Positions 15,001 through 18,000 of a stretch of 64,000 nucleotides of DNA are shown piece by piece. Where the stretch lies: the NCBI RefSeq assembly GCF_024700885.2, contig NZ_CP117016.1, one strand, 5' to 3'. The number at the start of each line of letters is the position of its first letter. Position 1 is the stretch's first letter. The stretch comes from Escherichia coli. GTDB taxonomy: Bacteria; Pseudomonadota; Gammaproteobacteria; Enterobacterales; Enterobacteriaceae. A program made the position numbers.

Positions 15001-18000
15001 GCTGCCGGAGTTGCATATGTTGCGATGAAGCCAATCGTTGAAAACCTTGGAATGAGCTGGTCAACGCAGCAAACAAAACTCATGAAGCAGATTAGCAAAT
15101 TCAACTGTGTTCATATGAACATGGTTGCCGCTGATGGGAAGCTTCGTAAGCTACTCTGCCTTCCTTTGAAGAAGTTAAATGGATGGCTGTTCAGCATCAA
15201 CCCTGAGAAAGTTCGTGCTGACATCCGCGATAAACTGATTCAGTACCAGGAAGAATGCTTTACTGTGCTGCATGACTACTGGACAAAGGGAAAGGCAGAA
15301 AATGCACGTAAGAAAACATCTGTTGATGACAGGACTCCGCTTCGTGATGCTGTAAATATGCTGGTCAGCAAAAAGCATCTAATGTACCCAGAAGCTTATG
15401 CAATGATTCATCAGCGTTTCAATGTGGAAAGTATTGAAGAGCTTGATGCATCTCAGATACCGCAAGCCGTAGAGTACATCCACAGGGTAGTACTTGAAGG
15501 CGAGTTAATCGGCAAACAAGAGAAGAAAGCAAACGAGCTTTCTGCAAAAGAAGCAAACAGCCTTGTATGGTTATGGGATTATGCCAACCGCTCACAGGCA
15601 TTATTCCGCGAACTGTATCTGGCGCTAAAACAAATTCAATCGAACTATTCCGGCAGATGCTACGACTACGGTCATGAATTCTCGTATGTTATCGGAATGG
15701 CGAGAGACGTTTTAATAAACCACACACGAGATGTTGATATTAATGAGCCAGACGGACCAACGAATCTTTCCGCATGGATGAGACTTAAGAATAAAGAATT
15801 ACCTCCTTCAGTACATAACTACTGACAGATAACCAACGCAACGACCTAGCTTCGGCTGGGTTTTTTTATGCCCAAAATTCACCGTAGCCATGCTGCGGCG
15901 ATTCCTTGTATTTGGAGCAAATTAAATGACAGATATTATAAATAGGAATTGTTATTTAATAATGTTTGAAAATAAAAATCATGGACGATAGGAATAAAGG
16001 TATTACTTGTTTTTATTTTTGTAAGTGACGCATTAAGCGCATAAATAATATGCCTGTTGATCAAGATTCTTGAGTATTGTAAAATAATCGTTTTGTTCAT
16101 GTTGCATGGTTTTTAAATGAATAGAAGGTTATTTTTCAAAACAATTGCATCGTTGTCTGCAGTCATTCCGTTTTCTTCAATATCTAAATCTTCAAACAGG
16201 ATGACTAATATGCCTGATATAACCCCAAATGTTGTGATAGGTATGCCATCGCAACTCTTCACAATGGCTAGCTCTTTTAAAACCGTAGCAAATGGAAAAA
16301 TTTATATCGGTAAGATTGACACAGATCCGGTAAATCCAGAAAACCAGATTCCAGTATATCTGGAACGAGAAGATGGTACTTATGTTCAGGTGCCACAGCC
16401 AATCGTTATCAATGCTGCTGGATACCCGGTATACAACGGACAGATTTCCAAATTCGTTACCGTGCAAGGCCATTCTATGGCTGTTTACGATGCATATGGT
16501 ACGCAGCAGTTCTATTTTCCGAATGTGCTTAAGTACGATCCTGACCAATTAAGACAACAATTAGAAGACCCGGAAGGTGCTAAAAAATATCATGAATTGC
16601 AGATGTCTCGGTGGCGTGATGACGCTGACCCTCGCGGATGGGGAGCAAAAGGTGATGGCATCACCGATGACACATTATCTTTTCAAGAGTTAGAAAAACA
16701 AATCACAGGAAGGATTGTTGATCTAAGGGGTAATACATATATAACAGATCAAGTTTTTGATGGAAATAAGTATATAAATGGCTATTTTCGCACAGAGAAT
16801 CGATTACTGCCAGATGCTGATTTTACTGAAAAAAGAATACAAACTATAAAAAAGGGGATGTATACAGGTTTCAGACCTTCTACTCCTAATCATGTTAAGT
16901 CAGGGTTGCGACTGGCAACAATTAAAAATACTGTCATACAGGGTGCTGTTCTTGATTATTATGACAGTGTTCTTTATTGCTTGGTAAATGTGAGTGGCAG
17001 CGTTAGTTCTGGTGACGAAGTTAATAAAGTTGTTGCTTATAATTGGTTTGGGAATGAAGAGTTAACTCCTCTTTGGGAGACTAAAGGTAGTAGAGAATTA
17101 GGACATCAATGTCTTGGTTTAACCATAGGGCGCGTTGGTTTTCGTAACACAAGAGGCCAGTTACAGATATGGGGGTTAGCTGGCACAGCTAAAGGAGAGG
17201 ATCGCGCAAAGTATATCACCAGATTCACCCCTACTGATGGTGGTGAAATTGAACCAGAGTTTTTTCTCATATGGGAAGATGGTTACGAGAATCAGGTAAA
17301 TGTTTTATGCACCGACCCTATGAGTCGATGGCTGATTACTACAGCAAAACGTTATGTTGGCCCTGGTGAGAGCCCATCAACACCAGATCAAATTCGCTAT
17401 TATGTAAAAGTATTTGATACCAGCAAATTTATTAACCCGCAGGCGTACAATTACGATTATCGTAATGAAGCAACTTTTGAATTTGAAATTGCCGATTTTG
17501 TGAGGGATATGCAAACAGTTGCGTGTGACGGTACTGCTATTTATTTTTGTCAGGCTGGATCTGCATATTCTTCAACCAGAAAATATTTGCATCAGTACAC
17601 ACTTGATGGTGTTTATCTTGGGGTGCAGCAAATACAGGCAGGTGCAGGAAGAGCCTATGAAATAGCAGATCCAAATGATACCGGAACGCCAGATGTTAGC
17701 AATCTTACATATGAACCAGAAGCAATGTTTTTCCGTATGATTGCAGGTGGGTATGACCTTGTAATGGGGAATACAAATGGCATACCAGATGGTGATAGTG
17801 GGCGAGAAACTACATTTTACACATTAATGCCACAACAGGTAATGCATGTAAAAACAACATCAAGAAATCAGCCTGGTATTATCATTGATTCAACCCATGA
17901 TATTGTCACTAACTCTGGTTTGTTAAGCCTTGGTAAAATTATGCCTGGTGGTGAAGTCATAGAGCAGGCAAACCTTGATGACAAAGGATTCACTGTTTCG

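Follow-up and report, generated by a model that had tools for sequence, protein, structure and literature searches.

A second, orphaned tailspike start stands upstream of the tailspike gene in a P22-like (Lederbergvirus) prophage that adjoins ybhB-bioA in Escherichia coli. The prophage lies in a stretch of 64,000 nucleotides from contig NZ_CP117016.1 of assembly GCF_024700885.2 (hereafter the window, whose coordinates are used throughout). Between the orphaned start and the present tailspike gene, known in P22 as gene 9, lie 272 bp of AT-rich DNA, here called the spacer. The explanation we favour, and consider rather likely, is that the start of an older gene 9 was orphaned and joined to a foreign segment that has since been inherited, at an insertion site of homing endonucleases; the window copy would be free of an endonuclease and probably decayed.

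The window annotation used was that of RefSeq, made with the Prokaryotic Genome Annotation Pipeline (PGAP), for NZ_CP117013.1, the E. coli MLI114 chromosome. The spacer census covered 5426 complete E. coli genomes, phage records, IMG/VR and metagenome contigs. Scanning IMG/VR for the boundary sequence found 5′ of P22-like tailspike genes, followed by ATGACAGA, gave at least 120 loci. Altogether, 146 loci with the boundary sequence were collected; 76 distinct boundary variants, 18 spacer variants and 17 complete downstream tailspikes were compared. The coordinates of the features are given in Table 1.

The orphaned tailspike start

Alignment of the window with the ant-gene 9 junction of P22, epsilon34 and CUS-3 showed that the sequences are collinear from the ant stop codon, through the ant terminator and a conserved stretch (…TCACCGTAGCCATGCTGCGGCGATTCCTTGTATyTGGAGCAAATTAA), to ATGACAGAyATTA, after which the homology breaks off. 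In P22, epsilon34 and CUS-3, the full tailspike gene begins at this ATG. The homologous tract covers positions 15866-15938, and similarity ends abruptly after ATGACAGATATTA. The left flank is 95-97% identical over 59-73 nt to Kapi1 and to one IMG/VR relative. Reading from this start leads into a full tailspike at 105 of the 146 loci, and 39 loci are vestigial. These results uphold the original prediction, made from the window sequence, that the ATG at 15926 with its Shine-Dalgarno sequence is the start of a P22 tailspike.

Standard 5′ ends of gene 9 begin ATGACAGACATTACAGCCAATGT, and standard tailspike starts contain …GGAGCAAATTAAATGACAGACATTACAGCCAATGT…. Intact alleles starting ATGACAGATATTAC are known, so that all 13 coding nucleotides of the vestige are identical to a living allele. 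Positions 15-24 of the vestige match an allele of the E212 type (18/24), and no intact MTDIIN... tailspike allele that would extend the vestige to 24 nt was found in IMG/VR. Judging from these alignments, the part derived from gene 9 is 13-14 nt long (~4.5 codons), possibly up to 24 nt, and the remainder of the 21-codon frame is spacer DNA. We conclude from the comparison of sequences that the ATG at 15926, the GGAG that precedes it and the boundary of ~47 nt are the orphaned translation start of an ancestral P22-type tailspike, the likeness being due to homology and not to chance.

The present gene has its own start. PGAP places it at 16210 (MPDITPNVV), with AGGA 8 nt upstream, and position 1 of the Pfam Head_binding profile aligns exactly at this methionine (4.5e-61), in line with the restart originally proposed there. 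AGGA and the ATG are the same in all copies, an invariance partly forced by the search pattern. Counted from its own ATG, the present tailspike can be aligned to standard tailspikes codon for codon; therefore, the gene start has been duplicated, not split. The short frame in AT-rich DNA that the original prediction described downstream of the relic ATG was found to comprise 21 codons and a stop, and the spacer has a GC content of 27.6% as compared to 41-44% in the flanking genes.

Distribution and inheritance of the spacer

The spacer was found in 43 of the 5426 complete E. coli genomes, at 46 places, all of them chromosomal and full length and none under an annotated gene. It is also present in phage JEP4, the sole phage record that carries it, and in 15 IMG/VR contigs and 8 metagenome contigs (23 in all). 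Every copy is preceded by the vestige, with a single exception (L027), and always stands before a tailspike starting with MP. With the IMG/VR MP-start pattern, no MP(D/N/E)ITPNVV tailspike start was ever found without the spacer. In the exceptional metagenome contig (OGJH01001350.1), an IS1 terminal repeat (…GTAAGTTGGCAGCATCACC) adjoins the spacer at the equivalent of window position ~15956, ~70 nt into the oriented part of that contig, and replaces the vestige side. An IS1 end was also seen at another locus (L142), within a standard tailspike gene at about codon 20.

Three spacer classes were distinguished, with ~99-100%, 91% and 86% identity to the window. Their differences include 5-bp and 1-bp indels, and inter-class recombinants occur (for example L020). 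Divergence is distributed unevenly along the spacer, the 5′ third being common to classes 2 and 3 and the 3′ third to classes 1 and 2, which fits inter-class exchange. The zone 5′ of the tailspike gene, termed the 'ant moron', shows more flux than any other part of the late operon, ten types being known from sixteen genomes (Villafane et al. 2008, PMC2629481). The module itself was seen in at least four upstream contexts: ant with its terminator, a minus-strand gene of the mnt/arc family, a JEP4-type context and a P22-like extra segment.

On the right side, the identity of the linked tailspike with standard alleles is 64-67% in the first ~36 nt and rises to ~95% thereafter (for example with phiv205-1), which fits immunity and equally a foreign origin. 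As read from these identities, the foreign segment measures ~310 bp (15940 to ~16245) and is made up of the spacer together with ~36 nt from the start of a divergent allele that has its own AGGA and ATG. From ~nt 36 onward, the head-binding domain is, by the same comparison, of the ordinary E. coli type and recombines freely with insert-free alleles. In phiv205-1 itself (L025 527-742), the tailspike is annotated as a 71-residue 'bifunctional tail protein' and the frame from the standard start stops early; it is truncated or frameshifted.

The inter-class divergence of the spacer (0.08-0.13) is low with respect to the synonymous divergence of the head-binding domain (0.28-0.57). Purifying selection on the spacer was considered as an explanation and rejected, the head-binding domain past ~nt 40 being near-identical to insert-free alleles. 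This identity (~95%) indicates that the head-binding domain has been overwritten by recombination from a diverse insert-free pool, an overwriting that the spacer escapes because that pool holds no partner for it. Overall, the joint is old and is inherited as a module made of the boundary, the vestige, the spacer and the MP start; it is neither a private nor a recent scar. The module is mobile through flanking homology, being combined on the left with different 'ant moron' contents and on the right, within the head-binding domain or beyond it, with many receptor-binding domains.

Further repeats were observed around the present start. ATAAATAATATGCCTG (16041-16056) and ATGACTAATATGCCTG (16201-16216), lying 160 nt apart, form a direct repeat with 14/16 identical positions that class 1 shows most clearly. 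A further in-frame ATG, at 16201, opens ATGACTAATAT, a sequence similar to the old start ATGACAGATAT (9/11). These repeats may be further small duplications of the gene start, or chance matches in AT-rich DNA.

Endonuclease cassettes at the same junction and competing explanations

Among the IMG/VR matches listed, ~16 loci are vestigial: 5 of the Kapi1 type, 5 of the L040 type and ~6 of the window type. In Kapi1, a minus-strand gene with the annotation HNH endonuclease comes after the vestige ATGACAGACATTAC and precedes a tailspike starting MPEQLYNVVV. The L040 type has ATGACAGACATTAy, then a distinct minus-strand open reading frame (ORF) of 164 residues, and then a tailspike starting MSNIVPNVII. 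Both cassette proteins contain an HNH_3 domain (Pfam, 4e-15 and 2e-16), that of Kapi1 also an AP2-like domain. Both match phrog_99 'HNH endonuclease' (E = 1e-61 to 1e-63) with 42% mutual identity, and relatives of the family occur in 2330 phage records. The HNH gene of Kapi1 is unmentioned in the Kapi1 preprint.

In all three insert types, the left junction lies at nt 13/14 of the old gene, and the minus-strand ORF stops at a TAA complementary to gene 9 nt 11-13, which in Kapi1 is the end of the annotated coding sequence. Codon 2 of the linked tailspike is non-standard in all three, the window type sharing Pro2 with Kapi1 and Pro6 with L040. The occurrence of two HNH_3 cassettes at the same junction, each with altered first tailspike codons, leads us to read this junction as an insertion site of homing endonucleases. 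The main argument is that three unrelated inserts meet gene 9 at one nucleotide, each with a minus-strand ORF ending on the same borrowed stop; at the level of sequence, this coincidence suggests such a site.

The window insert resembles the HNH cassettes in these respects and also in its presence/absence polymorphism among close relatives, which marks it as optional at the edge of conserved genes. It differs in several ways: an HNH motif, an intact ORF and detectable similarity to those cassettes are all missing, the insert is about half as long and poorer in GC (28% vs 37-41%), and its copies have diverged far more from one another. Identity among the HNH cassettes is at least 99% across their 15 and 7 carrier E. 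coli genomes; together with the divergence of the spacer, this is consistent with a recent spread of the cassettes and an older window-type spacer. The window insert thus shares its site with bona fide endonuclease genes and encodes no endonuclease itself, so that it was classed only as a mosaic joint at such a site. Tested as a moron, the spacer failed: it has no intact conserved ORF, no internal terminator and only a weak promoter-like match.

The following course of events would account for the locus. The ancestral tailspike start would have been orphaned, 13-14 nt of it surviving, when a foreign segment of ~310 bp was joined to it. The 5′ end of the tailspike gene would be an insertion or cleavage site of free-standing HNH homing endonucleases, with a cut near gene 9 nt 13-14, and the spacer may descend from, or have been installed by, an HNH-type cassette, as a version that is free of an endonuclease gene and probably decayed. 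Late transcripts from the ant region presumably cross the leader, because the terminator scan detected no terminator inside it. Ribosomes may still load at the relic site and produce a meaningless 21-residue peptide, while the tailspike itself would be translated from 16210.

Decay can be looked for in the minus frame of the spacer (Table 1). This frame contains 2 stops as compared to 5-10 in the other frames, and a 54-residue minus-strand ORF ends at the TAA 15936-15938. The lesions differ between classes: class 1 has one internal stop, and classes 2 and 3 have a 5-bp deletion instead (in class 2, this leaves a 92-residue ORF, P0002). That the lesions differ while the rest of the frame is open suggests that a gene has decayed here, and we take the minus frame as a candidate for one, the statistics being weak. 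The reconstructed minus-strand peptide includes …NNNSYL and gave only self-matches or nothing in a protein search. Coding tests on the six spacer frames found convincing constraint in none, and both the vestigial ORF and the 54-residue minus-strand ORF are broken in some classes.

Several results weigh against descent from an HNH cassette. Searching the spacer with both HNH proteins by tblastn gave only E > 5, and blastn against the cassettes found nothing beyond the flanks. No spacer frame matched PHROG or Pfam, and the only homologues among 5.8 billion proteins were the spacer's own ORFs. Measured against shuffles, the openness of the minus frame is not striking: p is 0.12 for the frame as it stands and 0.024 once it is reconstructed. 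Its pN/pS (ratio of non-synonymous to synonymous polymorphism) of 0.7-0.95 points to an absence of current constraint, and a complete HNH_3-AP2 enzyme would not fit into the reconstructed ancestral ORF of ~76-95 codons. The search for a donor context of the spacer found none in phage records, in IMG/VR (3′ pattern and MP-start pattern) or in metagenomes (interior pattern), and species-representative genomes gave 0 hits. Finally, the shared junction could stem from a single ancient event with interior replacement, from selection or from chance, and not from a site-specific cut.

Considered by itself, the stranded start is a mosaic scar of an ordinary kind. In the Hendrix/Casjens model of phage mosaicism, 'novel joints' arise by illegitimate recombination followed by homologous exchange. 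The joint described here resembles them in passing from near-identity to no similarity at one nucleotide inside a gene, in its viable product and in its spread by flanking homologous recombination. It differs in that three inserts share one breakpoint, which random illegitimate recombination does not predict; the common breakpoint suggests a site-specific break or a single ancient event. With the ant-gene 9 junctions of P22, epsilon34 and CUS-3, the locus has in common its position between the ant terminator and the tailspike, the boundary, the Shine-Dalgarno sequence, the first codons and the local flux. In contrast to these junctions, the flux here enters the tailspike gene, whose start is duplicated with one copy orphaned and 272 bp of unrelated DNA in between. 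No description of such an arrangement was found in the literature examined.

The original prediction attributed the scar to replacement of the tailspike (receptor-binding protein) module in this prophage and saw in it a hotspot for such exchange. A mosaic joint with a duplicated gene start would agree with this, as would the rapid flux 5′ of the tailspike gene (PMC2629481) and the fact that different tailspikes do come after the scar. However, looking for the same scar before different tailspikes showed that an identical junction and spacer precede unrelated receptor-binding domains: the 17 complete tailspikes sort into at least 8 groups, whose receptor-binding parts are unrelated and 468 to 910 residues long. 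Divergence of these parts sets in past VLKYDPDQ, where the head-binding domain ends, ~345 nt downstream, which corresponds to the known exchange point of P22-like tailspikes (PMC2629481), and the head-binding domain is standard past ~nt 36. The vestige is therefore not the point at which receptor-binding parts are swapped. Moreover, the event predates the split into the three classes (86-100% identical) and so carries no information on a replacement in this prophage. What holds of the scar is a truncated tailspike 5′ end at a mosaic junction; module replacement is largely refuted by the 8 receptor-binding-domain types behind one junction, and we regard it as unlikely. Insertion of a small non-autonomous element, comparable to a miniature inverted-repeat transposable element, into tailspike codon 5 with a target-site duplication was also weighed. 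Imperfect 14-nt direct repeats, ATGACAGATATTAT and ATGCCTGATATAAC, 10/14 identical, flank the AT-rich insert. On the other hand, the spacer has no terminal inverted repeats, all 46 genomic places are one site, never on a plasmid or in another context, unrelated inserts share the same junction, and the 'duplication' is a complete, codon-for-codon homologous gene start and not the short repeat of a staggered cut. We consider such an insertion very improbable.

Selection for a function of the spacer or of its frames would be another way to explain its persistence. As a regulatory leader, it would provide a σ70 promoter of its own and/or a processing or stabilising hairpin and make tailspike expression independent of ant read-through; the ant region of P22 is thought to modulate tailspike levels (PMC2629481). 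The hexamers of the σ70-like match and their 17-nt spacing are invariant around hypervariable positions 16070-16077. The predicted hairpin 16077-16139 (-15.5 kcal/mol) has z = -3.4 in the window class and -2.2 and -2.7 in the other two, as compared to -0.06 on the minus strand; 99.5% of cells are paired, and 7 one-sided changes keep the pairing. The 272 bp are also kept, free of large deletions, at 14% divergence. Yet σ70-like matches in the leader are rarer than in shuffles (1 vs 3.0), the whole-leader fold is not significant on either strand (z = -1.2) and the hairpins were picked after the fold had been viewed. Two-sided changes are absent (0), Alifold of the three classes found 1 compensatory pair in 98, and a search of Rfam with positions 15750-16300 yielded 0 matches on either strand up to E = 1. 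Inter-class recombination also explains the uneven divergence. A regulatory leader appears doubtful. It is scarcely probable that the tailspike is also, or instead, translated from 16117 with a 31-residue N-terminal extension resembling a twin-arginine translocation (Tat) signal. This frame is open in 18/18 variants with an ATG or GTG start, 5/10 substitutions are synonymous, the promoter-like site lies just 5′, the JEP4 authors annotated the long form, and by eye the extension shows an invariant RRLFFK motif (MNRRLFFK…) and an 11-residue hydrophobic stretch. Against it, there is no Shine-Dalgarno sequence, the predicted fold sequesters the start codon within the hairpin stem, and PGAP and Pfam place the start at 16210, Head_binding beginning at residue 32 of the extended form. 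No Tat profile in Pfam or NCBIfam matched at E up to 10, no protein with such an N-terminus is present in the collection of 5.8 billion, the chance of 31 AT-rich codons staying open is ~0.07, and the synonymous excess is ambiguous, third positions coinciding with minus-frame third positions. The extension is thus probably not translated. A dedicated leader that combines a lysogen promoter at 16057-16085 with this Tat-type signal, the exported tailspike trimming host O-antigen or capsule from the periplasmic side, is likewise scarcely probable; if it existed, the exported isoform would be a new kind of lysogenic conversion or superinfection exclusion. As for the 21-codon relic, a strong Shine-Dalgarno sequence at ideal spacing and little variation over the 5′ 85 nt might speak for an independent functional small gene or a regulatory upstream ORF. 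In class 3, however, it stops at codon 17 (16 residues), and every other change in it is non-synonymous (R-to-G, C-to-F, M-to-I, K-to-E among the classes). The counterpart ORFs of the HNH cassettes have 5 or 20 unrelated codons, and translational coupling is not possible because the relic ends 218 nt before the tailspike start. A functional role is extremely improbable, and from its substitutions the 21-codon ORF is not a conserved gene.

Returning to the orphaned start at an endonuclease insertion site, about 1 in 8 of the sampled P22-like tailspike loci carries an insert at tailspike nt 13/14, and homing-endonuclease genes make up two of the three insert types. If these enzymes cut standard tailspike starts, they would introduce double-strand breaks beside the host-range determinant and the immunity (ant) region. 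This would provide a concrete mechanism for the high local recombination and would predict co-conversion of tailspike and ant-moron markers in mixed infections. The greater value of the locus lies in the recurrent endonuclease-associated junction and less in the scar itself. A practical use is a warning for annotation. In the GenBank record of JEP4, the annotated tailspike (L002 3239) begins at an in-frame ATG (MNRRLFFK…) that lies 31 codons 5′ of the start supported by PGAP and Pfam, which is probably a mis-annotation.

Layout of the locus

Table 1. Features from ant to the end of the tailspike gene, in window coordinates
Feature	Position	Strand	Basis
ant (antirepressor), final gene of the 'ant moron' 5′ of the tailspike	14923..15825	+	PGAP, ORF list, homology to ant of P22/epsilon34
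Intrinsic terminator of ant, hairpin GACCTAGCTTCGGCTGGGTT and T-run	15843..15870	+	Terminator scan; terminator annotated at the aligned epsilon34 position
'Boundary sequence' 5′ of P22-like tailspike genes	15879..15925	+	Kept behind at least 6 upstream contexts, 146 loci
Ancestral Shine-Dalgarno sequence GGAG	15914-15917	+	8 nt before ATG 15926-15928
Gene 9 coding vestige ATGACAGATATTAT, 13-14 nt	15926..15939	+	Alignment with P22, epsilon34, CUS-3, E212
Vestigial 21-codon ORF MTDIINRNCYLIMFENKNHGR	15926..15991	+	Stop 15989-15991
AT-rich spacer, 267-272 bp by class	15940..16209	.	No recognisable gene, RNA family or mobile-element ends
Nearly open minus frame, possibly a decayed gene	15936..16209	-	Ends at TAA complementary to gene 9 nt 11-13
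Putative σ70-like match TTGATC-17 nt-TAAAAT	16057..16085	+	Scan
Predicted local RNA hairpin, 22 pairs	16077..16139	+	Fold vs shuffles
Putative in-frame extension, 31 codons, 5′ of the tailspike start	16117..16209	+	
Current ribosome-binding site AGGA (16198-16201) and tailspike ATG (16210)	16198..16212	+	Sequence, PGAP start, Pfam alignment, same in all copies
Divergent first ~12 tailspike codons, cassette-linked	16210..16245	+	Identity to standard alleles
Tailspike gene, 861 residues	16210..18795	+	ORF list, PGAP, Pfam

The counterpart of the boundary in the CUS-3 record is annotated 'bsq1; boundary sequence'. A small hairpin was noticed inside the boundary of the window, ~16 nt before the old Shine-Dalgarno sequence (CCGTAGC-CAT-GCTGCGG; 7 bp, 15882-15888 with 15892-15898). 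Its pairs are retained in 88-99% of the 76 variants, some of which have U-A in place of C-G or C-G in place of U-G. In P22 (L005 1590-1840), ~110 extra bp separate ant from gene 9, with a direct repeat of AAAATTCACCGTAGCCA, a part of the boundary, on both sides. Upstream of the vestige of another locus (L012), a different segment of ~80 bp lies between similar repeats. These repeat-flanked segments are a second layer of scars in the boundary.

The tailspike of the window has a P22-type head-binding domain, followed by a receptor-binding part that is unrelated, and ends in a C-terminal Peptidase_S74 chaperone domain. The Peptidase_S74 'chaperone of endosialidase' match has E = 4.5e-10, and a weak match to an endosialidase N-terminal extension was seen; from its domains, the protein is probably a self-cleaving depolymerase. 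A hydrophobic ORF of 95 residues (18796-19083), whose start abuts or overlaps the tailspike stop, matched no family and is shared with JEP4 (JEP4_21). The 'ant moron' of the window (13370-14640; L001 1132-2943) contains, on the minus strand, a PIN-domain protein with a hypothetical protein of 239 residues, and also two genes of the Arc family. A toxin-antitoxin or defence role is possible for the PIN pair.

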